From Gammaproteobacteria bacterium (GTDB lineage: Bacteria > Pseudomonadota > Gammaproteobacteria > Ga0077536), in contig OZ244144.1 of assembly GCA_965216305.1 (NCBI GenBank), positions 2,036,248 through 2,100,247 on the forward strand: a stretch of 64,000 nt of DNA, read 5' to 3'. The notes beneath the pieces were generated by a model, which did not search any database, was not told where the DNA came from, and saw only the letters and a list, made by a program, of their open reading frames with translations. A program made the position numbers and the translations under genes. The first letter of the stretch is position 1. Each line of letters opens with the position of its first letter. Positions 6,691 through 25,991 of the stretch are shown here, piece after piece.

Positions 6691-9600
6691 ATGAACAAAC
6701 GATTCCCTGAAACAAAGGGCCTTGATTTCGCCCGCATGGAGGACGAACTGCTGACCTGGTGGTCACAGGACGACATCTTCGAGCGCTGTATCGCGAACCG
6801 CAACGATGGTCCGCCATTCAGTTTTTACGAAGGCCCGCCGACGGCGAATGGCCGGCCCGGAATCCATCACGTTCTCGGACGGACGATTAAGGACACGTTC
6901 TGTCGCTACAAGACCCTGAAAGGCCACAAGGTAAATCGCAAGGCCGGCTGGGACACGCACGGGCTCCCGGTTGAGATCGAGGTCGAGAAGGAGCTTGGAC
7001 TCGACGGTCGCGAGCAGATCGAAGACTACGGCATCGATCGTTTCAACCAGGCGTGCAAATCGAGTATCGCGCGCTACAAGAAAGACTGGGACGACCTGAC
7101 CCGCAGAATCGGGTATTGGGTTGATCTCGATAACCCCTACATCACCTACGAGACGAACTACATCGAATCCGTCTGGTGGTTGATCAAGGAAATCCACAAA
7201 CGCGACTTGCTCTATCGGGGACACAAGATCCAGTGGTACAGCCCGGGTAGCGGAACCGTGCTTTCCTCGCACGAGGTGAGCCTCGGATACAAGGAAATCA
7301 CCGATCCCAGTGTCTATGTCCGCTTCGAGGCGACGGATGTCGACAACGAGAGCTTCCTCGCATGGACGACCACGCCGTGGACCCTGATTTCGAATGTTGC
7401 GCTCGCGGTGGGGCCGGATATCGAATACGCCCGTGTCCGCATTGACGAAGGCCCGCTCGCGGGTCAGACGCTGATCATCGCCGCCGCGAGGCTGGGTGTC
7501 ATCACCGAAGCGCATGAAGTGCTGGCGAAGATTCCCGGGCGGGATCTCGTGGGTCGCCGGTACCGTCCCGCATTTACGCTGCCGGACGTCGGCGATACGT
7601 CGACCGCGTGGCGCGTGGTTGCGGCTGATTACGTATCAACCGAAGACGGCACGGGAATTGTCCACCAGGCACCGGCCTTTGGTGCTGAGGACTACGAGGT
7701 GGCGCAGCGTGAAGGGCTGCCAATGTTCAATCCGATGCAAGCGGACGGTCATTTTGACGCTTCCACGCCGCTCGTGGGTGGCGAGTGGTTCAAGGACGCG
7801 AACCGGATCATCAACCGCGATCTGAAAGAACGTGGCTTGCTGTATCGCCAGGAATCCTACCTGCACAACTACCCGCACGACTGGCGTAAAGGTACGCCGT
7901 TGATGAGTTATCCGGTAGAAAGCTGGTTCGTGCGGACTACGGCAGTGAAGGATCGCCTCGTCGATCTGAATCGGACGGTCGACTGGCATCCGCAGGCGAT
8001 CCGCGATGGGCGCTTCGGCAACTGGCTTGAGAACAATATCGACTGGGCATTGAGCCGCAAACGCTACTGGGGGACGCCGTTGCCGGTGTGGATGTCGGAC
8101 CATCCGGGATCGGATTATTTCGAGGTGATCGGGTCTATCGCGGAATTGCGCGAGAAAGTTGGCGACGCGCTCCCCGCGGATGCGGCGCTCGATTTGCACC
8201 GCCCGTACGTTGACCAGTACACCTGGCCTGCACCGGACGGTGGCACCATGCGCCGCGTTTCCGATGTGATTGATGTCTGGTTCGACTCCGGGGCCATGCC
8301 GTTCGCGCAGTGGCATTACCCGTTCGAGAACAAGGCCGAGTTCGAGGAAAGCTTTCCCGCCGATTTCATTTGCGAAGGGCTCGATCAGACCCGCGGCTGG
8401 TTTTACACGCTGCACGCCATTGCAACGCTCGTGATGGACAGCGTCGCGTTCAAGAATTGCGTGGTGAACGGCCTGTTACTCGACGAGAACGGCGAGAAAA
8501 TGTCGAAATCGAAAGGCAATACGATAGACCCTTTCGAAACCGTGGCCACCTACGGGGCCGATGTCGTGCGCTGGTACATGCTGAGCAATTCGCCACCGTG
8601 GGACAACATGAAATTTTCGCTGCGCGGACTCACGGAAACGCGGAACAAGTTTTTCAGCACGCTGGAAAATGTCTACCGCTTCATGGCGAGCTACGCGAAC
8701 ATCGACGGCTTCGGCCACAGTGAAGCGGCGATCCCGCTCGGCGAGCGCTCGGAACTCGATCGCTGGATTCTGAGTCGGCTCAATTCGACGATACGACTCG
8801 TTGACGCCGCGTTCGATGGCTACGACGCCACGCGTGCTGCGCGAGCGATCGAAACGTTCGTCGATGAACTCTCAAACTGGTACATCCGGCGATCGCGGCC
8901 GCGTTTCTGGGCGGCGAAGAAGTCCGTTGACGAAACCGCCGGCGCCGGGGACAAGCTGGCTGCCTACCAGACAACGTATGAATGCCTGCTCGCGGTGGCG
9001 AAGATGATGAGCCCGATCGCGCCGTTTTTCTCGGAGTGGCTGTACCGCAGCCTGAATGAGACCACGGCGCTCGAGTCCGCCCCGTCGGTGCACATGACGG
9101 ACTTTCCGCGCGTCGATCCTGCGGCGACGCAGGCCGATCTCGAACACCGCATGCATACCGCGCGCACCATTGTCACGCTGGTGCTGTTATTGCGTAACAA
9201 GAGCCATCTGAATGTGCGCCAGCCTTTGTCGCGGGTACTGCTCGTTGTGGGCGGTGGTATCGACCAGCGTGTTGTGGAAAGCGTTAAGGACATTATTCTT
9301 GACGAGATCAACGTGCGCGCCATCGAGTACATCGAGGATTCCAGCGAGGTGGTGAAGCGTTCCGCAAAGGCGAATTTCAAACAACTGGGTTCGCGTCTCG
9401 GCAAGCGCATGAAGGGCGCGGCGGCAGCGATTGCGGCATTCGGCGAAGCCGATATTTCAGCACTGTTAACGAGCGGTTCATACACGATCGATGTCGACGG
9501 AGAAGCCATCTCCCTGGTACCGGATGATGTTGAAATCCTGAGCGAAGAGCTCGGCGACTGGAGTGTTGCACAGGAGGGGCGGGTAACGGTGGCGCTTGAT

Positions 9601-9891
9601 ACGCAGCTCACACCCGAGCTGTTGGCGCACGGCTTGTCGCGGGAGGTGGTGAATCGTATCCAGACGATGCGCAAGACAGCCGATCTCGACCTCGTCGATC
9701 GGATCCGCGTGCAATACCACGCTGAGGGAGAGTTGGCCGCCGCGATCGCGGAGCATGCGGACACGATTCGTCGTGAAACGCTGGCACTTTCACTGGAATA
9801 CTCGGACAATCCCCAAGGCGAGCATCGGGAAACTTTCGACATAAACGGCAGTCAACTTGTTGTGGCGCTCTCGGTGGACAAGACTGTATGA
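6691..9891 (+). CDS. ileS: Isoleucyl-tRNA synthetase, long type-2 (eukaryote-like) form.
   Basis: Start trimmed to ATG 6691 (MNKRFPETKGLDF...). HIGH region PPTANGRPGIHHVLGR and KMSKS region EKMSKSKGN. About 1066 aa with no C-terminal Zn-finger tail of the type-1 enzyme. No lspA downstream. Confidence 0.93.
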   Translation: MNKRFPETKGLDFARMEDELLTWWSQDDIFERCIANRNDGPPFSFYEGPPTANGRPGIHHVLGRTIKDTFCRYKTLKGHKVNRKAGWDTHGLPVEIEVEKELGLDGREQIEDYGIDRFNQACKSSIARYKKDWDDLTRRIGYWVDLDNPYITYETNYIESVWWLIKEIHKRDLLYRGHKIQWYSPGSGTVLSSHEVSLGYKEITDPSVYVRFEATDVDNESFLAWTTTPWTLISNVALAVGPDIEYARVRIDEGPLAGQTLIIAAARLGVITEAHEVLAKIPGRDLVGRRYRPAFTLPDVGDTSTAWRVVAADYVSTEDGTGIVHQAPAFGAEDYEVAQREGLPMFNPMQADGHFDASTPLVGGEWFKDANRIINRDLKERGLLYRQESYLHNYPHDWRKGTPLMSYPVESWFVRTTAVKDRLVDLNRTVDWHPQAIRDGRFGNWLENNIDWALSRKRYWGTPLPVWMSDHPGSDYFEVIGSIAELREKVGDALPADAALDLHRPYVDQYTWPAPDGGTMRRVSDVIDVWFDSGAMPFAQWHYPFENKAEFEESFPADFICEGLDQTRGWFYTLHAIATLVMDSVAFKNCVVNGLLLDENGEKMSKSKGNTIDPFETVATYGADVVRWYMLSNSPPWDNMKFSLRGLTETRNKFFSTLENVYRFMASYANIDGFGHSEAAIPLGERSELDRWILSRLNSTIRLVDAAFDGYDATRAARAIETFVDELSNWYIRRSRPRFWAAKKSVDETAGAGDKLAAYQTTYECLLAVAKMMSPIAPFFSEWLYRSLNETTALESAPSVHMTDFPRVDPAATQADLEHRMHTARTIVTLVLLLRNKSHLNVRQPLSRVLLVVGGGIDQRVVESVKDIILDEINVRAIEYIEDSSEVVKRSAKANFKQLGSRLGKRMKGAAAAIAAFGEADISALLTSGSYTIDVDGEAISLVPDDVEILSEELGDWSVAQEGRVTVALDTQLTPELLAHGLSREVVNRIQTMRKTADLDLVDRIRVQYHAEGELAAAIAEHADTIRRETLALSLEYSDNPQGEHRETFDINGSQLVVALSVDKTV

Positions 9892-9981
9892 CAGGGCGGC
9901 CGGTACTTCGGTAACGCGTACCGGAAACCGGCCGAACAGCGCCCAGAGAAAAATCTGAGTCTGAGATCGAACTGAACCACT

Positions 9982-10623
9982 ATGAAACCGATGTTGAAAC
10001 CGCTGCCTGTTATCCACGCGTACGTTTTTGCGCTGTTATTGTCCATTGTTCTATCCGCCGGTGCGTTCGCCGAAGGAATCGCAACGCCAACGGAACGCGT
10101 ACGCAGCGCGATTGGCGACATCATGAAGATTCTGAAGAACGACAATCTCGATCGCGATCAGAAGTGGTCCGAGGTCGGGCGTGTCGTTGACGCCGGTTTC
10201 GACTTCCGCAGCATGTCACAGAGCATTCTCGCGACAAACTGGCGCACCGCCACGGCGGAAGAGAAACGCCAGTTCGTGGAGTATTTCGCGCAGTATCTCG
10301 AAGCCACCTATCGCGACAAAATCGAGTCCTACACGAATCAGCGTGTGGAGTATATGAACGAATCGGTGCGCGGCGACCGGGCCGTCGTCGATACGATTAT
10401 CATGACTGACGCAACGCAGATCCCCGTCACCTACAAGCTGAAACTGAATGATGAAGGCTGGTTTGCCTACGACGTCGTCATCGAAGGTGTCAGCCTCGTC
10501 AATAATTACCGCAGCACGTTCTCGGCAATCATAAAATCCGAAGGGATGGAAGGATTGTTGACGGATTTGCAGGGTCGAATCGAACGTTACAAAGCACAAC
10601 ACGGCGGTTTACCGCCGCGATAG
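9982..10623 (+). CDS. mlaC: MlaC/Ttg2D-family periplasmic phospholipid-binding protein, standalone paralog.
   Basis: 213 aa with signal peptide. Clear similarity in family motifs (ATNW..A, EYxxESV...WxAYDVxIEGVSLVxNYRSxF) to the operon-encoded MlaC at 10766-11404. Confidence 0.8.
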   Translation: MKPMLKPLPVIHAYVFALLLSIVLSAGAFAEGIATPTERVRSAIGDIMKILKNDNLDRDQKWSEVGRVVDAGFDFRSMSQSILATNWRTATAEEKRQFVEYFAQYLEATYRDKIESYTNQRVEYMNESVRGDRAVVDTIIMTDATQIPVTYKLKLNDEGWFAYDVVIEGVSLVNNYRSTFSAIIKSEGMEGLLTDLQGRIERYKAQHGGLPPR

Positions 10624-10765: not shown

Positions 10766-11404
10766 CTAGTGTTGCGCGGGCAACGAGGAGCGTGCGACTT
10801 TTGTTTCCAGTTGGGCAATCAACCCGTCGATGCCTGAATCCCTCACAAGCTGCTGAAAACTGCCGCGGTAATTGCGCACGAGACTGACCTGTTCGATGAC
10901 GACGTCGTACGCATACCACTTGCCGTCATCCTTGCGATACATTTTATAGTCGACCGGGATATCGACGCTATCCGTGTTGATCACGGTTTTTACGGTTGCC
11001 AGATTGTCAGTGCGTTTCGATTCGCCGACATACTCCACCGTTTCGTTCTTGTAGCCGGAAATCTTGAACCAGTAAGTGTTCGACAACAGCTCTTTGAACA
11101 GACTCGAAAAGCGGTTGCGCTGTTTCTTCGTCGCCTTCTTCCAGTTCGTGGCGAGCACGCGACTGGACATGGCGCGAAAATCGAAATGCGCGGAAATTAT
11201 GTTCTTCACCCGCCGCATCTTTGCCTCTTCACTGACCTCGCCGGCCTGCAGTGCATGGAGCACGGCATCCACGGTGGTGGTGACGGTTTCCATCGGTGTG
11301 TTGGCGATTGCTGATGCCGGGAGTAGCGTGAGCGCAAGCAGGAAGATCCATGTGCGGATCCCGTGCTGCGATGTACCAGGTGTTGTGTATTGTTCGGCTG
11401 TCAT
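10766..11404 (-). CDS. mlaC: MlaC, the ABC-transport auxiliary periplasmic component (lipid asymmetry).
   Basis: Directly downstream of mlaD. ATG at 11404 lies 4 nt after the mlaD stop. Signal peptide and Ttg2D family motifs present. Confidence 0.85.
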   Translation of the reverse strand: MTAEQYTTPGTSQHGIRTWIFLLALTLLPASAIANTPMETVTTTVDAVLHALQAGEVSEEAKMRRVKNIISAHFDFRAMSSRVLATNWKKATKKQRNRFSSLFKELLSNTYWFKISGYKNETVEYVGESKRTDNLATVKTVINTDSVDIPVDYKMYRKDDGKWYAYDVVIEQVSLVRNYRGSFQQLVRDSGIDGLIAQLETKVARSSLPAQH

Positions 11405-11409
11405 CGGGA

Positions 11410-11868
11410 TCAATCCTTGTCTCCGCTTTCGAAGATGTATTTGCTGATTAGCTCTTCGAGATTAATCGACGACTCGGTTTCATAGATTTCGCCGCCGGGT
11501 TCGATATAGGTATCCGAGCCGCCCGGTGAAATTTTGACGAACTTGTCGCCGATGATCCCCGATGTTCGAATCGATGCGATTGCGTCTTCCTGCAGTCTTA
11601 GGCGCGGGTCGAGCGCCATTGAGACAATGGATTCGTAACTGTCGAAATCGACTTCGATTTTCGACACCGTCCCGACGCGCACGCCGCCAACTTCAACGAG
11701 AGCGCCTTCATTGAGTCCCGAGGAGGAGACGAAGCGCGCCTCGATGGTGTACACGTCCTGCTTGAACAAACCGATATTGCCCAGGCGCAACGCGAGGTAG
11801 CTGAGTGCGAGCAAGCCGACCACCATAAAGAGGCCGACCGATAATTCGAGGGAGGATCGTTCCGTCAT
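11410..11868 (-). CDS. mlaD: MlaD, the MCE-domain periplasmic substrate-binding component.
   Basis: 152 aa with N-terminal TM anchor followed by an MCE domain. Position sits between mlaE and mlaC. Confidence 0.9.
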   Translation of the reverse strand: MTERSSLELSVGLFMVVGLLALSYLALRLGNIGLFKQDVYTIEARFVSSSGLNEGALVEVGGVRVGTVSKIEVDFDSYESIVSMALDPRLRLQEDAIASIRTSGIIGDKFVKISPGGSDTYIEPGGEIYETESSINLEELISKYIFESGDKD

Positions 11869-12030
11869 GATGGTCTAGCGGGGTGTCCCACGATAAACAG
11901 TCGTAATTCCTTGATGTTTTTTCCGCTTCTGTGTTGCTGCGATCACGCAGAGCGTGTGTCCATGTGTTCGGAACAGTGCTGTTGATGAAACAACGGGCAC
12001 GACAGTCTGCACTGGTCCTGGAGCCCCGTA

Positions 12031-12834
12031 CTAGAGCATCAATGCGCTGATAATGTAATCGGCGAACAACACTGAAATTGACGCCGCCACAACTGCGTCC
12101 GTTGTTACACGGCTGACGCCTTCGGCGCCAAATACCATACTCCGATTCAAATGCATGAGAAAGCTCTTGCCGGTGCAAATCCAGGCGATAACAAGCGCGA
12201 ACGCAACGGATTTAGCGCCACCCATGAGCAGATCCCGCCACAGCACACTATCGGCCATGCTCTGGAAATAGGTGCCCTGGTTGAGTCCGAAAATAACAAC
12301 GCCAACGAACCAGCCGCCGATGATGCCGACGACATTGAATATCGCCGTGAGCAGGGGAACCGTAACGAGAAACGCAAGCAATCGTGGCACGATCAGATAG
12401 CGATACGGATCGATCGCCATCGATTCGAGTGCATCGATTTGATTGTCGCTGCGCATGATTCCAATCTCGGCACACGTTGCCGAGCCGGCACGTCCGATGA
12501 TGATCAGCGCCGTGAGTACAGGGCCGAGCTCACGGATCAGGCTCAGACCCACGGCGGAACCGAGCAGGCTGACGGAGCCAAAGCGCACGAGCGTATCGTA
12601 GAACTGCAGCGCAACAACCATGCCGACGAACGCGCCGGCGACCGCGATCACGACGACGGAGCGTGCACCGACAAAGCGGATCTGCTGGAACAGGACACGG
12701 ATTTCAAACGGTCGCGCTGCGAGCTGTCGCACTACCAGCAGCAGATACAAACCCATCCGCCCCAACTCCTCGACCGCGGTCAGCGTGCGGCTGCCAAAAG
12801 CCCCAAGCCACGTTGTGACGGCTCCTGTCATCAT
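12031..12834 (-). CDS. mlaE: MlaE, the ABC transporter permease.
   Basis: 267 aa polytopic membrane protein with typical MlaE/Ttg2B sequence. Follows mlaF. Confidence 0.9.
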   Translation of the reverse strand: MMTGAVTTWLGAFGSRTLTAVEELGRMGLYLLLVVRQLAARPFEIRVLFQQIRFVGARSVVVIAVAGAFVGMVVALQFYDTLVRFGSVSLLGSAVGLSLIRELGPVLTALIIIGRAGSATCAEIGIMRSDNQIDALESMAIDPYRYLIVPRLLAFLVTVPLLTAIFNVVGIIGGWFVGVVIFGLNQGTYFQSMADSVLWRDLLMGGAKSVAFALVIAWICTGKSFLMHLNRSMVFGAEGVSRVTTDAVVAASISVLFADYIISALML

Positions 12835-12875
12835 TTCCTGCTCAGTAGTGGCGCATCTGCGCGTGGCGTTTCACG

Positions 12876-13697
12876 TCAGGACTCGTCATCGTGCGTCAGC
12901 TGTTCGAGATACTCGTCACCGGTGCGTTTCCGGTGCCGGGTACGGCGATGCAGCAGCGCCTGGATGGCTTCGTCCGGGGAACGCATGATTTCCTCGACCG
13001 TACCGAGGCCCGCGATGCGGCCGTCGGCGATGATGAGTATGCGATCGGCAATTTTCAGTGCACTCTCGAGCTCGTGCGTAACCACGACGACGGTCATGCG
13101 CAGAGCGTCGCGCATCTCAATGATGAGTTCGTCGAGCTCGGCCGATGTCACCGGGTCGAGGCCCGCCGAAGGCTCATCGAAAAACAGCACGTGCGGATCC
13201 ATGATGACGGCACGCGCCAGGCCGGCACGCTTGAGCATCCCCCCCGACAGTTGAGCCGGCATCAGGTCTTCGGCGTTGCCGAGCGACATCATGTCGAGCT
13301 TCATACGACTCATGATCCGGATCGTGCTGGGATCCAGCGACGTGTGCTGACGCAGGGGCAGCTCGACATTGTCGATGACGCTCATCGAATTAATCAGCGC
13401 ACCGCTTTGAAACGCAACCCCGATCCGCTTACGCAGCTCGTACATATCCTTTTTCGACAGCGTCGCGAGTGACTTACCGAGTAGTTCAACGCTGCCGATC
13501 GAGGATTTGTTGAGGCCGATCAGGTGACGCAACAATGTTGTCTTGCCGGACCCGCTTGCGCCCATGATGACGAATATTTCGCCTTTCCTTACCTGCAGGC
13601 TCACATCGCGCAATACCTGCCGATTACCGTAAGCAGTAGATAAACCCCGGACGCAAAGGACGCTGCTTGGACTGTTGGGGGCGGCGGATTCGGTCAC
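12876..13697 (-). CDS. mlaF: MlaF, the ABC transporter ATP-binding protein.
   Basis: Walker A GASGSGKTT, ABC signature LSGGM and Walker B LFFDEP. First gene of the mlaFEDC operon. No STAS-domain mlaB follows. Confidence 0.9.
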   Translation of the reverse strand: MTESAAPNSPSSVLCVRGLSTAYGNRQVLRDVSLQVRKGEIFVIMGASGSGKTTLLRHLIGLNKSSIGSVELLGKSLATLSKKDMYELRKRIGVAFQSGALINSMSVIDNVELPLRQHTSLDPSTIRIMSRMKLDMMSLGNAEDLMPAQLSGGMLKRAGLARAVIMDPHVLFFDEPSAGLDPVTSAELDELIIEMRDALRMTVVVVTHELESALKIADRILIIADGRIAGLGTVEEIMRSPDEAIQALLHRRTRHRKRTGDEYLEQLTHDDES

Positions 13698-13843
13698 GTT
13701 CGTGGCGGTGCCTGTGGGGACGCGGAAGCTGGATGGGTTCGTCGCCAGTATACCGTGCTCGGGAGCGGATCTTCGATGGCGCGAACAGAATCCGCGTGGT
13801 CGGTGGCCCGGCGGGATGGTACGCGGGTTCGTCGCCCGCGGGC

Positions 13844-13875
13844 AAAAAAAACCCCGGGCGAACCGGGGTTTTTTC
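13844..13875. terminator. Bidirectional rho-independent terminator.
   Basis: A8 tract, then stem CCCCGG with loop GCGAA and stem CCGGGG, then T6. On the minus strand it sits immediately 3' of the PEP-CTERM protein gene and upstream of mlaF. Confidence 0.8.
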
Positions 13876-13919
13876 GTTCGCCAACGATGATGAAATCGCT
13901 GGCGGGTTTCAAGCGGACA

Positions 13920-14582
13920 TCAGGAGGCTTGACCACCCCGACGACCAACAGTGACGAGCGCCGTGATTGCCGCACCCATCATCCAGATGGCGGGCGGAAT
14001 CGGAATCGCGGACAGACCTACCGTCAGCGTCGCTGAGGTCTTTTCGATCTGCGCCGTTTGCCCGGCACCGAAAGCGAACGCGAACAGGCTGTTCGTGATG
14101 TTTACGTCGATCGATTCCTTGTTGTCGATGGCAATCGGCAGCACCGAAATCGTCCACGCATTCGGCAGCGTGTTCGGCTGGAACACCTGGGTCAGGAAGT
14201 TAGATGGCGTGCCGTCCGCAACAATCGAGCCCGACGCCATGGCGACGCCGTTCGTCGTTTCGCCCTGACCCATTTCGGAGTAGCTGAGCGAGGTGATGCG
14301 GAATCCCGTAGGTGCCGTCAGCGTCATAAACAGTGTATCGACCGCCGACTGCGTCAGTCCGCTGGAACCGTCCGCCAGGAAGTTGTCGAGACCAAGCTGT
14401 ATTTCCACATCGCCGCCAACGTCCGACTGCGTGACCCCTGCGATGTCAAACAGTGACGAATTTCCGTTACCGTCTGCCAGATTCGAGATTGTGACCGACG
14501 CGGCGTTAGCCGTCGCGAACCCGGTCGTTAAGAGCAGCACTGCGACTGCCTTTCCAATTCCCTTTAAAAAGTTTCTGTCCAT
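13920..14582 (-). CDS. Secreted protein with C-terminal PEP-CTERM-like (VPLPA-type variant) exosortase sorting signal.
   Basis: Signal peptide MDRNFLKGIGKAVAVLLLTTGFATANA, followed by a Ser/Thr/Gly/Asn-rich domain. C-terminus is IPIPPAIWMMGAAITALVTVGRRGGQAS: a Pro motif, a hydrophobic helix and an Arg cluster. GGAGGG RBS. Strong terminator downstream. Confidence 0.6.
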   Translation of the reverse strand: MDRNFLKGIGKAVAVLLLTTGFATANAASVTISNLADGNGNSSLFDIAGVTQSDVGGDVEIQLGLDNFLADGSSGLTQSAVDTLFMTLTAPTGFRITSLSYSEMGQGETTNGVAMASGSIVADGTPSNFLTQVFQPNTLPNAWTISVLPIAIDNKESIDVNITNSLFAFAFGAGQTAQIEKTSATLTVGLSAIPIPPAIWMMGAAITALVTVGRRGGQAS

Positions 14583-14929
14583 TCTCTTTAACCCTCCAAT
14601 GGGTTGTGAAGTCCTTTGCCTTTAGTCCGGGAGCTCGTGTCACGCGCCCCGAGCGTGTTTTATGTTGTCGAACACAATATTGGACGATTGTTACGACATT
14701 GTGAACTGCGTTCGTTAAATTTGGTGAACTATTACGCAAAACGCTTGGCAATGTTTTGGTACGCGCCGGATGCGCAGGCAAATGCTGCCGGCGGAAAGGG
14801 ATTATAACAATAAAAACATAAATTTAATGTGGGTTTTCAGGGCGTTTGCGGCGGCCCGGGCAGGTTCTCTCACCAGGCGGCGAATGCGCGCGGGAGGCCT
14901 GAAACGCGCGCCTGGCGCCGGATCCGAGC

Positions 14930-17356
14930 TTACGCCGTCGCCTGCTCGGTTTCGAGTTTTTCCATCAAATCGCCGATTGCACGGTCGAAGATGGGGTCCG
15001 GCTTCGTATCAATCCGGCGTGCCACCCCGCGCGCAAACTGGTCCGCAAGGCCGGCCAGGGTCGTATCGAGAGCCTTCTCGCCCTGGCGCATCGTGAACAG
15101 ATAGCGCCCGGTCGAAGGGCTGATCCAGGTGAACCGCGCCCGCATGGTCGAGCCGTCGTCGTTGTCGAATTCCACCCAGTCGCCGAGATCGAGCGCCGTC
15201 ACCTGCTCGATGAACGCCATGATATCGGGACTCAGGTGTTCGGGCTCCGGTGCCGCGTCGGCCGCTTCGGGCTCGAACAGGGACAGGTCGAAGTCGAGTT
15301 CCTGCGTGTCGACGCCACGCTGGTCGAACAAGCGGGCCAGCCCCTGCTTCACGAAGTCTTCGTTATCGGTACGGTCGTTCTCCGCCACCAGCGGTTCGTC
15401 ATCTGCTTGCGAACTGAACAGGTGCCGCTCCGCGAGGCCGGCTTCCTCTGTGTGCTTTACTGCCACCACGTGAACGCTGGCGAGCATGCTGAGGAATTTG
15501 GAGCACGTCGGGGGATCCATTTCCAGCGCCGCCATGCCGCGGCGAATGTTCTTCAGGATCTGCGGCAGCTTTTTCGTCAGCGCCTGGCGTTCTTCCGGGC
15601 CGGACTTGGGCTGGATCGACCACACCAGGTCTTCGGCGGTGCGCAACTGGTCGTGCCAGATTTCGCTGTCCGGGCCGTGTTCGACGTGCGTGATGATCAT
15701 GAGCTGACGCCAGTAATCGAGCAGGAACTGGCGGATGAAGGTGCGCATTTCCTGTCCCCGAATACCCTCGTTAATCGCGTCGTCCACGGCCAGCTTCGCG
15801 AGTTCGATTTGCTCCCGCGCACGCAGTGATTGCGCGGAATCCGCCGCTCGCTGCTCCGCTTCAGCGGTTTCACGGGCGAGGAATGCCTCGAGATCGTCGA
15901 GGGCGCGTTCGAACACGCTGACATCGTCGTCAAATTCGTCAAGAATCGTGTGCACGATCCGATCGGCAGTGTGAAACAGACTGTCTTCGTCGCCCGCGGG
16001 TGCGCTCCAGCCCACCGCAGCTCCGGCCAGCGCATCGAGCAGACGTCGCGCCGGGTGCGATTTCTTCGAAAACAGGGCCTTGTCCAGCAAAGCGACTTTC
16101 AGCATCGGGATTTGCAGGCGCCCAATCAGCGCTTTCATTGCTGCGGGGATCGCCGGATCGTCGAGGATGTAGTCGAACAGGATGGACACGATATCCAGCG
16201 TCAGGCCGTCCGTTTGATTGACCTGACCGATGGCGCCCGTTTCCCGGATCGAGCGCAGCACGTTGACGTTGCCGGCCGTGAACTGCGCCGGATCGATCGG
16301 GGCGTCGCCAACGGCCTCGAGTGCGCTGAGATCGCCCTGTTGCAGCAGGGTCAGCGTGTCGACGAGGTTGGCAGTGCCAAACGTGTTCGTGCCGCTGGCG
16401 CCGTCGCCGCCTGCCGTACCGCCCGCGCCGAAGCCGGTGCCGGTATTCATGGCGACGCCATTGCCGCTGCTACCCGTCGCCGCCCCCGTGCCGCCGGCAG
16501 CACTGCCACCGAACCCGCCGCCACCGCCGCCGGAGAAATTCGCGATGGCGCGGCCACCCCCAAGCTGTCCGTTCGACATCATGGTCTGTAATGTCGAAAA
16601 CACATCCGGTCCGGTGGCTTCAACCTGCTCGTCGTCGCTCTCGATAATGACGCGTGTGCGGCGCGCGTTACTGCCTCCGGGCGTTGTCGAACCCGTGATC
16701 TTCGGCAGCACATCGCGTCTGATCAGGTGATCATTAACGTCGGTGTACATCTGGTGGATGCCGGCACCGGCAAATTTGTCGAACATTTTGAACAGGGTCA
16801 GTTTGACCTCGATATCCGATTCAAGCTGTTGGCAGGCGGTGCGAAACGCACTGCCGATGATCTGCGGGCCGAGCGGATTGTCGCGATCGCCGAGATCCGG
16901 CTGGCTCAGCAGATAACCCATGCGGCGGTCGAGGTGGAATAGCTGCTGCTTGCACTTCGTACGGACACTTTCGACGAAATTCGTCAGCGCAAGTGTTTCT
17001 TCAACCTCATCGGTTTCGACGAGCGAGAGTTCCAGTTCCGGCGCAAACGAGGCGGCGGGGCGCAGGGCTTTTTCAAGATCGATGCTGTCTTCAAATTCTT
17101 CGTTGAAACTGGCGATGAAGCTCGCCTCGAAGGAGTCACGTTTCAGTCGCAGTTCACGCATGGCGTCGAAGTACAAGTTCTGACGCTGCGAACTGTCGGC
17201 TTTGTTCGCGAGCTCGAACAGCGCGTCATCGACCTTGTCGAGCACTGTTTTGAGCGACGCGGGGAGGCGCTCGGATGCGAGGCGCTGACATTCCGTCAAC
17301 AGCTCCGCCGAGCGGGCCGGCACGAGCCGGGTCACGTTAGCCATGTTCAATTCCAT
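14930..17356 (-). CDS. Large uncharacterized protein resembling the DUF1631 family, with an internal Gly-rich low-complexity region.
   Basis: 808 aa single ORF. N-terminal region (ECQRLASERLPASLKTVLDKVDDALFELANKADSSQRQNLYFDAMRELRLKR) matches my recollection of DUF1631 proteins from gammaproteobacteria. About 70 aa G/A/S/T-rich insert at roughly 16366-16570. Confidence 0.55.
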   Translation of the reverse strand: MELNMANVTRLVPARSAELLTECQRLASERLPASLKTVLDKVDDALFELANKADSSQRQNLYFDAMRELRLKRDSFEASFIASFNEEFEDSIDLEKALRPAASFAPELELSLVETDEVEETLALTNFVESVRTKCKQQLFHLDRRMGYLLSQPDLGDRDNPLGPQIIGSAFRTACQQLESDIEVKLTLFKMFDKFAGAGIHQMYTDVNDHLIRRDVLPKITGSTTPGGSNARRTRVIIESDDEQVEATGPDVFSTLQTMMSNGQLGGGRAIANFSGGGGGGFGGSAAGGTGAATGSSGNGVAMNTGTGFGAGGTAGGDGASGTNTFGTANLVDTLTLLQQGDLSALEAVGDAPIDPAQFTAGNVNVLRSIRETGAIGQVNQTDGLTLDIVSILFDYILDDPAIPAAMKALIGRLQIPMLKVALLDKALFSKKSHPARRLLDALAGAAVGWSAPAGDEDSLFHTADRIVHTILDEFDDDVSVFERALDDLEAFLARETAEAEQRAADSAQSLRAREQIELAKLAVDDAINEGIRGQEMRTFIRQFLLDYWRQLMIITHVEHGPDSEIWHDQLRTAEDLVWSIQPKSGPEERQALTKKLPQILKNIRRGMAALEMDPPTCSKFLSMLASVHVVAVKHTEEAGLAERHLFSSQADDEPLVAENDRTDNEDFVKQGLARLFDQRGVDTQELDFDLSLFEPEAADAAPEPEHLSPDIMAFIEQVTALDLGDWVEFDNDDGSTMRARFTWISPSTGRYLFTMRQGEKALDTTLAGLADQFARGVARRIDTKPDPIFDRAIGDLMEKLETEQATA

Positions 17357-17602
17357 TTTATTCCGCTCGCAATACCTGATACTGCAATTTGTTTATCGTC
17401 CGTTCTTTGGCCGGACTTAATGCTTCATAATGAATTAGGAGAAGCGGCCCGGGCGGGCAATCCGAAATGCAAACGACTGTGAACTTCGTCACCGCGGCCC
17501 GGGTCCGTCTGTGACGTGTATCGCAGTCGCGTGCGGCAACGCAGCAGCCGCCGGCGACGCAAGCGGTAGCGGCCTGTTGCGCGCAAAGCACAATCTGGAG
17601 GC

Positions 17603-18598
17603 ATGACAACGGTGGAAAATGTCGATTTGGCGGTGCTGGAAACGGCCGTGAACTGGATCCGCGCAGACGGCGAGATCGTCCTCGCAACGGTCGCTAAAAC
17701 CTGGGGTTCGTCGCCGCGGCCGGCGGGCTCGATGATGGCCTGGCGGCGCGACGGGCAGTTTGAAGGCTCGCTTTCCGGTGGCTGCATCGAGCAGGAACTG
17801 CTCGAGCGATTCGCCGCTGAACCGCCACCAGCGCCGACCCGCGTCACCTTTGGCGTGACGAAGGAGCAGGCCGTTGCCCGCGGGCTCCCGTGCGGCGGCG
17901 AGGTGACGGTGGTGGTGGAGCGATGGCGCGCCGCGGACGAGGGCGAGGCCATCCTCGAGCGCCTCGGACGGCGGCAGCGGGTAGAGCGGGTGGTTGCTAT
18001 GAGCGGTCCCGATCTGTCATCGCTTACGACACCGGCGCCGGGGGCGCGAACCACGCTCGACGCGGAGCAGTTTCGCATTGTGTTCGAGCCGAAATGGCGC
18101 CTGCTCGTGATCGGCGCCGGCCAGCTGAGCGCTTACGTCGCGCGTTTCGCCGTCCCGCTTGGCTACGACGTGCGTGTTTGCGACCCGCGCGAGAACTATC
18201 GCGACTCGTGGATGGCCGACGGTCCCGAGGTGAATGGGGCGATGCCGGATGATTTCGTGCTCGCAGCCGGGTGCGATGCGCAAACGGCGGTCGTTGCGCT
18301 CACTCACGACCCTAAACTCGACGATCTGGCAATCATGGAAGCGCTGGATTCGCCCGCGTTCTACGTCGGCGCACTCGGCTCCAGCCGGACGAACCGGGCG
18401 CGGCGCGAGCGTCTCGCCGAACACTTCGACATACCCGCGGAACGCCTCGCGTTCATGAGCGGCCCCATCGGCGTCGATCTGAACACCCGCACGGCGGCGG
18501 AAATCGCGCTTGCGGTGATGGTCGAAATTACCGCCCGTCGTAACGGTGTGACGCTGACGAGCGAGCGGCAAGGCACGCACGAACACGCCGCCGCCTAG
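17603..18598 (+). CDS. xdhC: XdhC/CoxI-family molybdenum-cofactor insertion chaperone.
   Basis: 331 aa with N-terminal XdhC/CoxI domain and C-terminal Rossmann-like XdhC_C domain. GGAGG RBS. Confidence 0.8.
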   Translation: MTTVENVDLAVLETAVNWIRADGEIVLATVAKTWGSSPRPAGSMMAWRRDGQFEGSLSGGCIEQELLERFAAEPPPAPTRVTFGVTKEQAVARGLPCGGEVTVVVERWRAADEGEAILERLGRRQRVERVVAMSGPDLSSLTTPAPGARTTLDAEQFRIVFEPKWRLLVIGAGQLSAYVARFAVPLGYDVRVCDPRENYRDSWMADGPEVNGAMPDDFVLAAGCDAQTAVVALTHDPKLDDLAIMEALDSPAFYVGALGSSRTNRARRERLAEHFDIPAERLAFMSGPIGVDLNTRTAAEIALAVMVEITARRNGVTLTSERQGTHEHAAA

Positions 18599-18599
18599 A

Positions 18600-19178
18600 A
18601 TGCCGCGACTCGTCGGCCTCTTGCTGGCAGGTGGTGCGTCGTCGCGGTTCGGGGGCAACAAACTCGCCGCGCTGATCGACGGCGTGCCGATCGGACTGCG
18701 GTCGGCGCGTACGCTCGCGGCCGTTATGCAGGAAATCCTTGTCATCGTGCCGCCTGACAAAGCGTCGACACAGGCCCTGTTCGAGGGCGAATTTCCGGTT
18801 TCGGTGTGTCCCGACGCGCGCGTGGGGATCGGCTGTTCCATCGCTCACGGGGTGCGGCAAACATCAGCCGCGGACGGTTGGCTGATCGCCCTTGCAGACA
18901 TGCCATTGATTGAAAGCGGAACGATCGCGGCGGTGAAATCCGCGTTGTCGTCCCGTTCGGTGATCGTGCGGCCCTGTACCGGTGGTCGCGGTGGCCATCC
19001 GGTCGGATTCGGCGGGGATTTTGCGTCCGAGCTCGAACAATTGCGCGGTGACAGCGGCGCGGCGTCCGTTATCGCGCGCCATCCGGAGGCCGTTATCTCG
19101 CTGGATGTGGCCGATCCGGGCGTTCTTTTCGATGTCGACCGGCCGGCCGATATCGCCGCCGCTGACGCCTTGCGCTAA
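18600..19178 (+). CDS. MobA-like nucleotidyltransferase (molybdenum cofactor cytidylyl/guanylyl-transferase, MocA-like).
   Basis: 192 aa with N-terminal LLAGGASSRFGGNKL motif of the MobA/MocA NTP-transferase family. Starts 2 nt after xdhC, so translationally coupled. Confidence 0.75.
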   Translation: MPRLVGLLLAGGASSRFGGNKLAALIDGVPIGLRSARTLAAVMQEILVIVPPDKASTQALFEGEFPVSVCPDARVGIGCSIAHGVRQTSAADGWLIALADMPLIESGTIAAVKSALSSRSVIVRPCTGGRGGHPVGFGGDFASELEQLRGDSGAASVIARHPEAVISLDVADPGVLFDVDRPADIAAADALR

Positions 19179-21340
19179 AACTCGCTCAGCGGTTGCGGGC
19201 GCCCGATTTCGTAACCCTGAGCGTAGTCAACGCCAACCCGCTTGAGGATATCGAGCACCTTGCGATCCTCGACGAACTCGGCAATCGTGTGCTTGCCCAT
19301 CATGTGCCCGATTTCGTTGATCGACCGGACCATGGCGAGGTCAATTGAGTCGGTCGCGATATCACGAACGAAACTGCCGTCGATTTTCAGGAAGTCCACC
19401 GGCAGTTTCTTCAGATAGGAGAACGAAGAAAATCCACTGCCGAAATCGTCCAGCGCAAACTTGCAGCCGCGATCTTTCAGCAGGGTGATGAAATGATTCG
19501 CCTGCACGAGATCGCAAACCGCCGCCGTTTCCGTCACTTCAAAGCAAAGCTTTTCGCCTGGAATCCCGGTGTCATCGAGCTGTTCGAGGATAAAGCACAC
19601 GACATCCTCGTTGGACAGTGATTGCCCGGACAAATTGATACCGCACAGGTGCAGCCGGGCGGCGAGGGCCGGATTGCGGCGTAACCAGTCGAGCGCCGCG
19701 CCGATCACCCAGCGGTCGATTTTCGGTGAGAGGTCGTAGCGCTCGGCAGCCGGAAGAAACTCCGCCGGCATGACGATGTTGCCGAGCTCGTCGCGCATGC
19801 GCAGCAACAGCTCGTAGTGATCGCCGCGTGCACACGTATCCCCCACTGGTCTGATGCGCTGGAAGTTCAGTTCGAAGCGATTGTCGGCCAGGGCATCGTT
19901 GATGCGCGTGGCCCAGCGCATTTCGCCCTGGTGACGGCTCACCGCGGGGTGGTCTTTCTCGTAAACATGCACCCGGTTGCGACCGGAGTCCTTGGCCGCG
20001 AAGCAGGCCGTATCGGCCATGCTGAGCACCGAGTTCGCGTCGTCGCAGCGAGCGTTGACGATCACGAGGCCGATGCTGGCCGTCACGACGTGCTTGCGCC
20101 CCTGCCACACGAATTCGAACGCGTCGACCATCTGGCGCATCATCTCGACGGTCTCGCGCGCTTGCGCCGTATCGCAGTCTTCGATGAGCACCGCGAACTC
20201 ATCGCTGCTCAGACGCGCCAGCGTGTCGCGCTTGCGCACAATGGACTTGAGCAGTTTTGCCACCTGACGCAGAAGCTCGTCGCCCGCGTCATGGCCACTG
20301 CTGTCATTGACGAATTTGAACTGATCGAGGTTGACGATAGCGAGTGCGTGCTCGGTATTTTCGCTGTGCGCGGAGTCGAGCACCTGGGTAAGGCGTTCTC
20401 CCAGTGATTTGCGATTCGCCAGCCCGGTAAGTTCGTCGTGCGTCGACTGGAAAGTCAGCGATTCCGCCAGCACATGCGTATCGTTGATGTCTTCACTCGT
20501 CATCAAAATCATACCGTCGACGCCCTGCCGGATCGCGACCGCGGTTTCGCGCGCCCAGTAGATTGAACCATCCTTGCGCCGGCGCCGGATATCCCAGCGA
20601 CACGTTCTGCCAGGGGTCGCCGTGGTGGCGCCGAGTTGATCGGCCACGATCACCTGGTCGTCCGGCGCGTACAGCGAGTAGATCGATTTGTTGATCACTT
20701 CGTTGCGTTCATAGCCGAGGAACTGCAGCCCGAACTGGTTCGCGAACAGCACGTCACCGGCAAAGTTCAGCGTAAAGCACGTCATCGGGGTGTTGTCGTA
20801 CAACACGTGGTAGCGGAATTCGTCGGAGTTATCGAGATCGCCGAGCAGTTCTTCGTGCACCCGATGGTGGGCGAGGTTGTCGAGAGTGCGCTCGATGTCC
20901 TTGCGGTTGCGGTTGATGTTCGTGGTGGAGAATTCGGCGGCGCGTAGTTTTTCTGCTGTGCGCTTCAATGACAACTGGGTTTTGATCCGCGCGAGCAGCA
21001 TCGGCAGTTCGCCGGGCTTGGTGACGTAATCATTCGCGCCGAGCTCGAGTGAGCGGCGGATGTCGTTGCGGTCGGAACTCGCCGCCAGCATGATCACCGG
21101 GAGTTCGGTTTGCGAGAATTGCGTGCGAATTTCCTGCAGCACGTCCTCGCCGCGCATACCCGGCATCTGGAGATCAAGGAGGACGAGATCCACGTGCCGC
21201 CGTTTGACCACGTCGAGGGCACCCGGTCCATCGGCGGCGGTAATGACATCGTATCCACGGGACCCAAGACGCATGGAAATCGCCTTGCGGATAGTCGCAT
21301 TGTCGTCCACGGCAAGTACCGTAGCCGTACACTCGGCCAA
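19175..21340 (-). CDS. Response-regulator receiver-PAS-GGDEF-EAL protein (c-di-GMP turnover).
   Basis: REC domain with phospho-acceptor region (LAVDDN...LDLQMPGM). PAS region. GGDEF-like SSDEF motif. EAL domain (ELLLRMRD..., DDFGSG). TTG start with GGAGG RBS. Confidence 0.85.
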   Translation of the reverse strand: MAECTATVLAVDDNATIRKAISMRLGSRGYDVITAADGPGALDVVKRRHVDLVLLDLQMPGMRGEDVLQEIRTQFSQTELPVIMLAASSDRNDIRRSLELGANDYVTKPGELPMLLARIKTQLSLKRTAEKLRAAEFSTTNINRNRKDIERTLDNLAHHRVHEELLGDLDNSDEFRYHVLYDNTPMTCFTLNFAGDVLFANQFGLQFLGYERNEVINKSIYSLYAPDDQVIVADQLGATTATPGRTCRWDIRRRRKDGSIYWARETAVAIRQGVDGMILMTSEDINDTHVLAESLTFQSTHDELTGLANRKSLGERLTQVLDSAHSENTEHALAIVNLDQFKFVNDSSGHDAGDELLRQVAKLLKSIVRKRDTLARLSSDEFAVLIEDCDTAQARETVEMMRQMVDAFEFVWQGRKHVVTASIGLVIVNARCDDANSVLSMADTACFAAKDSGRNRVHVYEKDHPAVSRHQGEMRWATRINDALADNRFELNFQRIRPVGDTCARGDHYELLLRMRDELGNIVMPAEFLPAAERYDLSPKIDRWVIGAALDWLRRNPALAARLHLCGINLSGQSLSNEDVVCFILEQLDDTGIPGEKLCFEVTETAAVCDLVQANHFITLLKDRGCKFALDDFGSGFSSFSYLKKLPVDFLKIDGSFVRDIATDSIDLAMVRSINEIGHMMGKHTIAEFVEDRKVLDILKRVGVDYAQGYEIGRPQPLSEF

Positions 21341-21487: not shown

Positions 21488-23200
21488 CTAGGAGCCGGAA
21501 ATTCGGTACAGATCGGGTAACGGCGCTTTTCCGCTCTCGTCCGCGGCCGCGCCCGCTTTCGGGGTTGCGCTGTGCTCGAACGCCTCGCGCAGCGCAAACG
21601 CATCCCACGTGGCGCCGCCCGCGCCGTACAGTGTCATGTCCAGCGCGCGGATCTCCTGGTCGAGCGGGGTTGCGGTGCGATCGGCGAGCGCGCCGAGCGT
21701 GCGCGGTGGGTCGTCGAATGCGACGCGCGCCCACTGCAGCAGCGCCTGTTTTGTCCCGCGTGCATCGTTCGCCTTGCACGCGCCGAGCACATCGCGGCGC
21801 GCTTTGGCGAGCGATTCGGTCTGCGCCGTGCCGGCGACCGACGGTTCGGACGGCACCGCGCGGCGCGATTGCCACCACCAGGCGGCGGCCGTCGCCATCC
21901 AGCCGAGTAAACATCCGAGCGCGATGAAGCGCATGCTCTGATCCGGCGCCGCGGCAGTAATCGTCGCCGCCGGCGGGCTCAATGGCGCGACAGTATCCGG
22001 TGTTGTCGGCGCCGCGGGCGCCGGGGAAGTGCTGGTAGCCGGTGGCGCATTCACGCGAAAACGCCGTTCCGCGATCCGCGCCAGCTCCATGCGGTCGGTT
22101 TCCGTATTCCACCAGGCCACCGTGATTTCCGGAAACACGATCTCACCGCCGTTAGCCGGAATGATTGCGTACTTCTGCTGGCGGATCGCGGTGTAGCCGT
22201 TCTCGGCCTGTTGCTCGCTCGTCTGCGCCTGGTCGGGGTAACTTTTCAGGCCATCCGGCAGCTTGATCGGCACCTCCGGCAACTGTCCGGCATTGAGACC
22301 GTCAGCCCACAGAAATACCGTACGCGTCAGCGGTTCGCCGGCCTCGATCGTGTCGCCGGCGGGTTCCCAGTCGTCGCGCAGACTCAGTCGTCGCGCGGGC
22401 AGCCACGTATCGCCGCGATAGTCCGGCGGGATGGGCTTAACCTCGAGCGTGATCGCGTTCGACTCGATCCGGCGTGTTTGCACCGGGCGGCGGAACGGGT
22501 CGAACAGCGACCGTGTCGCGGGGACGAGCTGGGTTGTCAGTACCATCGGTTCAATCGTCATCGGCCCGCTCGTCTGCGGGAAGATGCTGTAGCGCCGTTC
22601 GAACACCTCATAGCGCTTCTGATCGCGTTGCGTCTGGTAGGTTGAATCGTTCCCGAGTCGTTTGATGATGGCGTCCGCATCCGTGCCCGGATCGGTCATG
22701 TTGGCGTCGGATAATTCCACCCGGCGCAGCAAACGTGCGGTGAGGACGACTTCCTGCTGTACATAAGGGGTGCTTGTATCCACCTCGATTTCCAGCAGCA
22801 AACCGGGATCGTCCGTTGCGCCGCTACCGCTGCCGCTGCGTGATGCAAGCACTTCGACGGTTCGCGCCGCGCTGCGATCGCTGCCGAAGGCAATGGCCGG
22901 GATCGTCAGCGGGCCGGGCGCGCGCGCGAGCACGTCGAGCACCCATGTCGTGGTGCGGCTGTTGCGTCCGTTGATCCACTGGATTGAGGTTTGCCGGTTG
23001 CGACCGAGGACGTCGACGAGCGCCTCGAGTTCGCTGAAATCCGGTTCCGCATCCACCGGGCCATCGGCGCGAAAAATAATCCGGAACGATTCGTTCGCGA
23101 CGAGCTCCGGCGGCTCGATCGACACCGAGACGTCCGTTGCCGCGGCCGGCGCCATCACGGCCACCGCCAGCAGCAGCGCTGTTATCCATTTCATCACCAT
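21488..23200 (-). CDS. batD: BatD-like protein (oxygen-tolerance/Bat operon outer component).
   Basis: 570 aa with signal peptide, a C-terminal TM segment and a TPR-like tail. Last gene of the moxR-vWA operon. Its ATG overlaps the batBC stop. Confidence 0.7.
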   Translation of the reverse strand: MVMKWITALLLAVAVMAPAAATDVSVSIEPPELVANESFRIIFRADGPVDAEPDFSELEALVDVLGRNRQTSIQWINGRNSRTTTWVLDVLARAPGPLTIPAIAFGSDRSAARTVEVLASRSGSGSGATDDPGLLLEIEVDTSTPYVQQEVVLTARLLRRVELSDANMTDPGTDADAIIKRLGNDSTYQTQRDQKRYEVFERRYSIFPQTSGPMTIEPMVLTTQLVPATRSLFDPFRRPVQTRRIESNAITLEVKPIPPDYRGDTWLPARRLSLRDDWEPAGDTIEAGEPLTRTVFLWADGLNAGQLPEVPIKLPDGLKSYPDQAQTSEQQAENGYTAIRQQKYAIIPANGGEIVFPEITVAWWNTETDRMELARIAERRFRVNAPPATSTSPAPAAPTTPDTVAPLSPPAATITAAAPDQSMRFIALGCLLGWMATAAAWWWQSRRAVPSEPSVAGTAQTESLAKARRDVLGACKANDARGTKQALLQWARVAFDDPPRTLGALADRTATPLDQEIRALDMTLYGAGGATWDAFALREAFEHSATPKAGAAADESGKAPLPDLYRISGS

Positions 23201-25005: not shown

Positions 25006-25991
25006 GTTGTCATCCGCCGGCCGAGCAACCACGCGGCGCCGGCGCCGAGCAGCAGGGCAAGACCGAGTGGCCAGGGATACAGTGGGGTGGTGGGGCGAAA
25101 ATGCTCGCCGCCGCGTTCCACCGGTTCGAGGGCGTCGATTTCCGCGTAGATCTGTTCGAGTTCCTCGACATCACGCGCGCGGAAATAGCGTCCGTTCGTG
25201 TTCTCGGCAATCGCACGCAGGGTTTTTTCATCGAGGTCGCGCGAGGGATTGATCCGGAACGAGCCGAACAGGCGTCGCACCATGAGCTCGTCGGCACCGA
25301 TCCCGATGGTATGGATCGTGAGTCCCGCCTGGGCCGCGAGTTCCGCCGCGCGCACCGGGTCGATCACGCCGGCGGTGTTCGCGCCGTCAGTGATCAGGAT
25401 CAGGATTTTGTCGTCCGAATCGTTCGCGCGCAGCCGCTTCACGGCAAGACCAATCGCGTCGCCGATGGCGGTGCTGGGACCGGCGAGTCCGATCAGGGAC
25501 TCATTGAGTAACTGCTTCACTGTGGCGCGATCGAACGTGAGCGGTACGTGCAGATAGGCCTGGGTGCCGAACAGGACGAGCCCCACCCGATCGCCTACGC
25601 GCCGGTCGATAAAATCCCCCACCACGCGCTTCGTCGCGGTGAGTCGGTCCACCCGCTGTCCGTCGAGAATGAAATCCACTTCCTGCATGCTCTTCGACAG
25701 ATCCACGGCGAGCATCAGATCGCGACCGCTGATCGGAATTTCAATCGCGTCGCCGAGCCATTGCGGGCGCATTGCGGCGAGCAGCAGGCAAACCCAGGCA
25801 AGTATTGCGAGCCAGAACGCCGCGCGCGAACCGGCGTGGCCGCCAGCATCTGCGGCAATGACGGAGAAGTCCTGGATCGAGGGCACACGCAGGGCGGCGC
25901 TCGCGCCCGTCGCCTGCGGTGGCAGCAGGCGGCGGTACAGCCACGGCAACGGCAGCGCCAGCAAGACCCAGGGCCAGACGACTTCGATCAC
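25002..25991 (-). CDS. batA: BatA-like vWA-domain membrane protein.
   Basis: Start trimmed to GTG 25991, which overlaps the upstream stop (GTGA). N-terminal IEVVWPWVLLALPLPWL is typical of BatA. vWA MIDAS motif DLSKSM. Confidence 0.8.
   Translation of the reverse strand: MIEVVWPWVLLALPLPWLYRRLLPPQATGASAALRVPSIQDFSVIAADAGGHAGSRAAFWLAILAWVCLLLAAMRPQWLGDAIEIPISGRDLMLAVDLSKSMQEVDFILDGQRVDRLTATKRVVGDFIDRRVGDRVGLVLFGTQAYLHVPLTFDRATVKQLLNESLIGLAGPSTAIGDAIGLAVKRLRANDSDDKILILITDGANTAGVIDPVRAAELAAQAGLTIHTIGIGADELMVRRLFGSFRINPSRDLDEKTLRAIAENTNGRYFRARDVEELEQIYAEIDALEPVERGGEHFRPTTPLYPWPLGLALLLGAGAAWLLGRRMTT

Follow-up and report, generated by a model that had tools for sequence, protein, structure and literature searches.

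We wanted to understand what a glycine-rich stretch of about 70 residues is doing in the middle of a large protein of the DUF1631 family. The protein is encoded in a stretch of 64,000 nucleotides of DNA (the window) from an uncultured gammaproteobacterium (GenBank assembly GCA_965216305.1, contig OZ244144.1, positions 2,036,248 to 2,100,247). Its complete coding sequence starts with ATG, occupies positions 14930..17356 on the minus strand, as seen from the open reading frame (ORF) list and its translation, and specifies a DUF1631 (PacR-type) protein of 808 amino acids (aa). An original prediction, made from the DNA letters without database searches, had called this ORF, had placed the Gly-rich stretch at about 16366-16570 and had assigned the protein to DUF1631. 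All three claims held. We set the bounds of the stretch, which we call linker 1, at 16367..16576 (aa 261-330), between the conserved flanks DVFSTLQTMM and LVDTLTLLQ. Comparison with homologues shows that the whole family has a variable linker here, which has expanded in this clade, and that the stretch is typical of the protein's relatives. We propose, with moderate confidence, that linker 1 is a disordered, uncharged tether of drifting length, and that the protein serves lifestyle signalling as an adaptor without enzymatic activity.

The glycine-rich linker and the domains around it

The Pfam profile PF07793 (DUF1631) matched the protein end to end. The match scored 636.2 bits (gathering threshold 33.7; E=1.1e-190), spanned aa 13-801 of the protein and 3-741 of the 741 profile positions, and was the only Pfam match obtained. 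Newer Pfam releases divide the family into DUF1631, DUF1631_2nd, DUF1631_3rd and DUF1631_C. All four parts (PF07793, PF26671, PF26672 and PF26670, respectively) are precomputed on an identical protein (P0001), and their boundaries match those of our AlphaFold2 model of the window protein. Judged by these profiles, it is a genuine full-length DUF1631 member. It is predicted to be cytoplasmic and soluble, as no transmembrane (TM)-like segment was found in the 808 residues (maximum Kyte-Doolittle 19-residue mean 1.27). A secreted or surface Gly-rich protein of the RTX or PGRS kind was ruled out on the same ground, together with the lack of a signal sequence by eye and of any such Pfam match, and the all-helical nature of the family.

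The AlphaFold2 model was built from an alignment of 66 sequences and had a mean predicted local distance difference test score (pLDDT) of 76.6. All parts of the protein are encoded on the minus strand. The chain begins with an all-helical domain (aa 13-213; 16718..17320), which was modelled confidently. This is followed by a pre-linker motif, RTRVIIES...DVFSTLQTMM (aa 231-260; 16577..16666), modelled at low confidence as a hairpin and a short helix (DSSP elements E235-248 and H253-261, pLDDT <50). The motif is conserved; in the 66 sequences D251 is invariant and F253, T255, L256 and L259 are each conserved in at least 90%. After linker 1 comes a middle helical region (aa ~331-648; 15413..16366) with pLDDT of 85-96 and a long helix at 480-532. 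The motif best conserved across the family, GRLQIPxLKVA...F..K.HPARRLL, is located here at aa 412-440, and the invariant columns of the region in the same alignment are L414, Q415, P417, L419, K420, F429, H434, A436 and R437. A second disordered segment, linker 2 (aa 649-711, about 64 aa; 15224..15412; pLDDT 42-62), is acidic, with 30% D+E, and it is acidic family-wide, with a net charge per residue of -0.17. The protein ends with a helix, a small five-stranded beta-barrel and a terminal helix (aa 712-808; 14933..15223).

No solved relative was found by sequence for either the full-length or the C-terminal profile. Foldseek gave local matches of the C-terminal barrel to Tudor domains at probability >0.9. 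The modelled barrel may belong to the Tudor/SH3-like fold class, which speaks for neither family membership nor function. Its identity with barrels of this class was 9-18% and amounted to no sequence-level relationship (TraI translocation-signal domain 4l0j/9f0x, Tudor domains of PHF1/PHF19 and Spindlin, N-terminal domain of CarD).

The peptide given in the original prediction, GGGRAIANFSGG...TANLV, is located at aa 266-332. Glycine makes up 28 of the 70 residues of the linker and 4.7% of the remaining protein (binomial P ~3e-19). The composition is 40% G, 16% A, 11% T, 9% S and 9% N. Together, G/A/S/T/N/Q/P reach 86%, and only two residues are charged. Four Phe are present, in the contexts NFSG, GFGG, GFGA and TFGT. 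When all six-frame ORFs of the window with a length of 100 aa or more are compared, linker 1 is the Gly-richest 70-aa stretch (28 Gly; the runner-up has 18). In the model, aa 222-322 had pLDDT of 32-44 and were flanked by domains above 90, and this, together with the uncharged composition, supports the flexible linker proposed in the original prediction.

We also compared codon usage. The in-frame GC content at third codon positions (GC3) was 0.786 in linker 1 and 0.759 in the remaining gene, and GGC was the Gly codon in 19 of 28 and 22 of 35 cases, respectively. Linker 1 matches the remaining gene in both respects and is therefore ordinary coding sequence. We also asked whether the Gly run of this gene could stem from a DNA tandem repeat, and found only a trivial 11-nt, two-copy match. 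Two plus-strand ORFs, 15830-16591 and 16230-16730, overlap the Gly-rich region; the simplest account is that they merely mirror GGN codons on the opposite strand.

Variation of linker 1 in the DUF1631 family

Clustering of this large family at 50% identity gave 7091 clusters at E<=1e-3 and 2347 at 1e-30. Its members occur in Gamma- and Betaproteobacteria, among them Pseudomonas, Stutzerimonas, Xanthomonadales, Thiobacillus, Ectothiorhodospira and Chitinimonas. Of the species representatives, the nearest full-length one shares 69% identity with the window protein, and a partial match reaches 93%. We observed a low-complexity segment between the same anchors in 111 of 111 full-length homologues (37-100% identity), so the segment is no strain-specific expansion. 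It was 22-122 aa long, with 11-55% Gly, 59-90% G/A/S/T/N/Q/P and no conserved sequence. The original prediction had called it an insert. The segment is real, but it is not peculiar to this protein, as every family member examined carries a linker there.

The same was seen in the wider family, where all 140 representatives had linker 1, with a length of 14-89 aa (median 32). Its median Gly fraction was 0.20, as against 0.054 in the folded parts, its charged fraction 0.07 as against 0.28, and its net charge about zero. Gly reached at least 30% in 27 of the 140. With 70 aa and 40% Gly, linker 1 of the window protein is towards the upper end of the family in both length and Gly content (family median 32 aa and 20% Gly).

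The length and the sequence of the linker vary widely. In relatives 76-94% identical elsewhere it measures 43-116 aa and its sequence is not conserved. Among those 86-94% identical outside it, linkers of 43-100 aa are at most 62% alignable, which is an upper bound inflated by composition. In Pseudomonas/Stutzerimonas it is a conserved 24-mer, SELRGSALPARNLPSDAIPISSND, with 4% Gly, and in Xanthomonadales it is 24-32 aa long and not Gly-rich. Two relatives carry near-perfect tandem copies of short peptides in linker 1, namely about nine of GGVPGGGMA (elastin-like) in P0010 and about ten of GAGVG in P0093. These fresh repeats point to slippage as the motor of linker change and to recent expansions.

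Such variation is what would be expected if the Gly-rich expansion were selectively neutral, with a site that takes any flexible spacer and slippage in GGC codons of a high-GC genome inflating the linker, without any effect on function other than to join two domains. The freely varying lengths, the recent signature of slippage in the perfect repeats and the Xanthomonadales and Pseudomonas groups, which manage with short linkers poor in Gly, all favour this explanation. We regard it as possible, though unlikely. Against it, the composition is kept family-wide: linker 1 is always uncharged and linker 2 acidic, which argues for constraint on physical properties despite free sequence. Further, no homologue is without the segment, the minimum being 14 aa, and Gly-richness lasts down to ~37-40% identity. 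These observations argue for constraint and do not prove an adaptive value of the extra length. As a part of our best explanation, we consider it fairly probable that selection keeps the position of linker 1 and its uncharged, G/A/S/T/P-rich composition, and does not keep its sequence or length. A Gly-rich uncharged chain is compact, and its end-to-end distance depends only weakly on its length, as is general for such polymers. This would explain why 22-122 residues are tolerated.

The linker of the E. coli protein SSB offers a comparison. Both linkers are Gly-rich, low in charge, poorly conserved and variable in length, and both join a folded domain to an interaction module. They are not homologous: that of SSB is Gly/Gln/Pro-rich with an acidic tip, whereas linker 1 is internal and G/A/T/S/N-rich, with sparse Phe. 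The Gly-rich linker of SSB supports condensates and is thus a bacterial precedent for reading linker 1 as a sticker-and-spacer low-complexity domain. Here G/S/N/T spacers and Phe/Tyr/Met stickers would lead to self-association or condensates, and the protein would be a concentration-dependent hub. The high Gly content, the near lack of charge and the Gly-type contexts of the four Phe fit this idea, and so do F, Y and M scattered in the Gly runs of relatives. It would also agree with abundant expression, and the DUF1631 gene PSTAA_3729 of P. stutzeri DSM4166 is among highly expressed genes picked for promoter cloning (PMC10155442). We nevertheless consider the idea improbable. The aromatic content of the linker is low family-wide (mean 2.6%, versus 5.8% in folded parts), and since large parts of the family lack the trait, the core mechanism must be a different one. 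Since the linker of Pseudomonas and Xanthomonadales is so short and not Gly-rich, phase separation is not required for the function of the family.

Putative partners and proposed role

We compared 75 genomic loci by our own ORF calling and clustering. No neighbour of DUF1631 was universal among them. The best was a gene for an HDOD-domain protein, which stood directly beside DUF1631 in 22 of the 75 loci, in at least four arrangements. It was divergent and upstream in 15 loci, with gaps of ~50-450 bp (one predicted ORF pair overlaps), and co-directional in one. In five betaproteobacteria the neighbour was an EAL-like+HDOD gene that followed DUF1631 directly downstream (gaps -10 to 154 bp). One locus, from a Hydrogenophilales metagenome-assembled genome (L055), has two DUF1631 paralogues at 7875-10223 and 12388-14850 on one strand, which enclose EAL-like/HDOD genes. 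Most genomes appear to carry only one DUF1631 gene.

In four loci (L021, L022, L023 and L029) we found a complete divergent partner-switching operon with the order HDOD, HDOD-PP2C(SpoIIE), HATPase_c_2 (RsbW-like) and STAS. In L036 the same order runs as far as the kinase, at which the contig breaks off, and L028 has an operon of this kind as well; in neither of these two was STAS detected. The partner-switching operon was followed by MlaE, MlaF, MlaD and an ABC auxiliary lipoprotein (an Mla-like transporter), and an Mla operon is near DUF1631 in the window too (10766-13697).

PP2C was also found inside DUF1631 proteins. PP2C profiles matched 18 of 38 long representatives (1000-1190 aa), in which the domain sits in linker 2, and about one in eight family representatives has PP2C inserted there. 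The order of its segments was settled by Pfam scans of two halves. In the three long members scanned in this way, the first piece matched profile positions ~64-255 and the second 7-73, with catalytic motifs in both. By these matches the inserted PP2C appears to be circularly permuted. The long relatives (such as P0123, P0136, P0144 and P0168) share with the window protein the N-terminal, middle and C-terminal domains and the linker positions. They differ in having PP2C in linker 2 and mostly a short linker 1 (14-33 aa), whereas the window protein has its acidic linker 2 and no PP2C. It is reasonable to take the fusion and the independent neighbourhoods as evidence that DUF1631 works with PP2C/HDOD signalling.

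We take PA4523 of P. aeruginosa to be a probable DUF1631 member, solely from the nadC-X-ampD synteny in Pseudomonas loci and the PAO1 gene numbers. Transcription of PA4523 is reported to mark the dispersal of biofilms (PMC13128677). Experimental phenotypes in the DUF1631 family come only from PacR (XC_3388) of Xanthomonas campestris pv. campestris 8004, whose deletion made cells hypermotile and low in exopolysaccharide, altered biofilm and reduced virulence, while many GGDEF genes were up-regulated (Luneau et al. 2022, PMC9543026). Its authors found no mechanism and were not helped by structure prediction (PMC9543026). PacR resembles the window protein in having DUF1631, in its length and in its layout of four parts. 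It is only a distant relative, with ~31% identity between the window protein and Xanthomonadales members, and it has the short linker 1 of that group. On the PacR model NF058594, an 'exception' model with a cutoff of 1200, the window protein scored 234.5 bits in three stretches, which is below the cutoff; a Xanthomonadales member scored 421, a Pseudomonas protein 256 and a betaproteobacterial one 259 bits. By these scores the window protein is in the Pfam family of PacR but is not a PacR equivalog. That it may work like PacR is an analogy at the level of phenotype only.

The protein is a modular chain, in which an N-terminal helical domain, a Gly-rich disordered segment, a conserved helical core, an acidic disordered segment and a probable Tudor/SH3-like barrel follow one another. 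On this basis we propose a role for it. Linker 1 would be the intrinsically disordered, uncharged tether that joins the N-terminal domain to the conserved core. It would have grown in this lineage to ~40-120 residues, probably by slippage in GGC-rich codons. The protein would act as a non-enzymatic adaptor or scaffold in the network that sets motile against sessile life, among enzymes of cyclic di-GMP (c-di-GMP), HDOD proteins and PP2C partner-switching modules. The two tethers would let the terminal domains reach partners, and the core and the Tudor-like barrel would be the interaction surfaces. Our data show the family membership, the domain layout, the disorder, the pattern of conservation and, in relatives, the HDOD adjacency and the PP2C fusions; the adaptor role, these partners and any effect on c-di-GMP are our interpretation.

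Several points weigh against this proposal. The HDOD and PP2C associations are not evidence for the window protein itself, which has neither feature nearby, and no HDOD gene was found in the 64-kb window (PP2C and STAS genes were not searched for there). The helical domains have no structural relative in the PDB, and their fold thus gives no hint of a binding site or an activity. Slippage as the origin of linker 1 is what we infer, as no DNA repeat survives in this copy. A gene for a REC-PAS-GGDEF-EAL protein, by its Pfam domains a c-di-GMP turnover protein, lies 1.8 kb upstream of DUF1631 in the window (19175..21340, minus strand), and 8 of the 75 loci have a GGDEF-EAL gene of its cluster no more than 4 kb away from DUF1631. 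As evidence for a link to signalling this linkage is weak. Any GGDEF gene was found within 4 kb in 11 of the loci, which is near what abundance or chance and shared ancestry would give. The linkage is local synteny, and the gene is gone from the vicinity of DUF1631 in P0020, which has unrelated neighbours, and in P0099, where BatD is directly upstream. The high expression of PSTAA_3729 would be no less expected of a structural or abundant protein than of a signalling adaptor. Finally, the link of PacR to c-di-GMP is itself indirect, being transcriptomic (PMC9543026).

A wider form of the proposal would make DUF1631 the non-catalytic partner that HDOD proteins and PP2C partner-switching phosphatases have so far lacked, and a new, widespread proteobacterial signalling hub feeding c-di-GMP and motility control, in which the clade-specific Gly-rich region would tune assembly, possibly by condensate-like self-association. 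We hold this to be rather unlikely. If it were true, the permuted PP2C insert would be a 'Rosetta stone' fusion that reveals the pathway. Another explanation makes the protein a global transcription factor whose Tudor-like C-terminal domain would bind RNA polymerase in the manner of CarD, Mfd-RID and the C-terminal domains of UvrD/PcrA; we consider this very improbable. That the barrel is a PilZ-type c-di-GMP receptor and the protein a direct effector, as its nature as a small beta-barrel and the c-di-GMP-related phenotypes of PacR (PMC9543026) could suggest, is essentially refuted and was rejected on both sequence and fold, since a scan of 21 diverse C-terminal domains with E values allowed up to 10 matched no PilZ profile (it gave only DUF1631 and scattered chance matches), the PilZ motifs RxxxR and (D/N)xSxxG were not found in alignment A2, no PilZ chain was among the top 60 structure matches, and the barrel did not show the PilZ-type fold.

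By itself the finding of linker 1 is ordinary, as the family is a catalogued one of unknown function and the linker is usual for its clade. The family matters more, since it is very widespread and its one studied member is a determinant of virulence and lifestyle in Xanthomonas. The HDOD adjacency, the partner-switching operons, the PP2C fusions, the probably Tudor-like domain that is not PilZ and the two tethers of conserved but opposite chemistry provide testable leads to the partners of DUF1631.

Flanking DNA and neighbouring genes

The DUF1631 gene looks monocistronic. A region of 246 bp upstream of it (17357..17602), shared with the divergent xdhC gene, is presumed from the sequence to hold its promoter and leader, and downstream an AT-richer gap of 347 bp precedes the next gene. 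No sigma-70 consensus site was found in the 246 bp. A riboswitch or other RNA element around the gene was rejected, as there was no Rfam match in or around it at E up to 1, the c-di-GMP riboswitch included, and the fold of the 246-nt leader was only marginally stable (z -2.06; 6 of 200 shuffles were equally good).

On the minus strand the order is the Bat operon (~21488-26162), the REC-PAS-GGDEF-EAL gene, DUF1631, the gene of a CTERM-anchored protein and mlaFEDC, with xdhC and mocA placed divergently on the plus strand between the GGDEF-EAL gene and DUF1631. This layout was also seen in P0017. The flanking genes are those named in the original prediction, a PEP-CTERM-type gene and an xdhC pair; we place the first downstream and the pair upstream and divergent. 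The pair consists of xdhC (17603-18598, plus strand) and a gene for a MocA/MobA-like nucleoside triphosphate transferase (18600-19178, plus strand). L002, L003 and L082 have it in the same place. It is missing from L004 and L009, in which a gap of 171-192 bp separates DUF1631 from the GGDEF-EAL gene immediately upstream. This suggests that the two genes were inserted in the lineage of the window. No structural genes of xanthine dehydrogenase or aldehyde oxidoreductase were noticed within ~10 kb on each side of the pair.

The gene downstream of DUF1631 (13920-14582, minus strand) encodes a protein of 220 aa whose N-terminus resembles a signal sequence and which ends in an IPIPPA-TM-RRGG tail. 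This protein had no Pfam match and matched PepA (flocculation PEP-CTERM) weakly, with 24 bits at a cutoff of 80. In the closest relatives this CTERM-tailed protein (cluster C24) is kept beside DUF1631. The operon upstream is of the BatA-BatD type (VWA, VWA-TPR, BatD, DUF58, DUF4381) and extends over 21488-26162 on the minus strand and beyond. It is syntenic with DUF1631 in L004, L009, L082 and L084, and in L084 BatD is directly upstream. Two convergent genes of the MlaC family, 9982-10623 (plus strand) and 10766-11413 (minus strand), are at the end of the Mla operon, and both score higher on the hopanoid-associated HpnM (88-92 bits, cutoff 160) than on MlaC. About 8.5 kb from DUF1631, at ~5189-6424 on the minus strand (20933-22168 in L001), lies a gene for a GAF and HD/HD_5 (HD-GYP-type) protein, a possible c-di-GMP phosphodiesterase.

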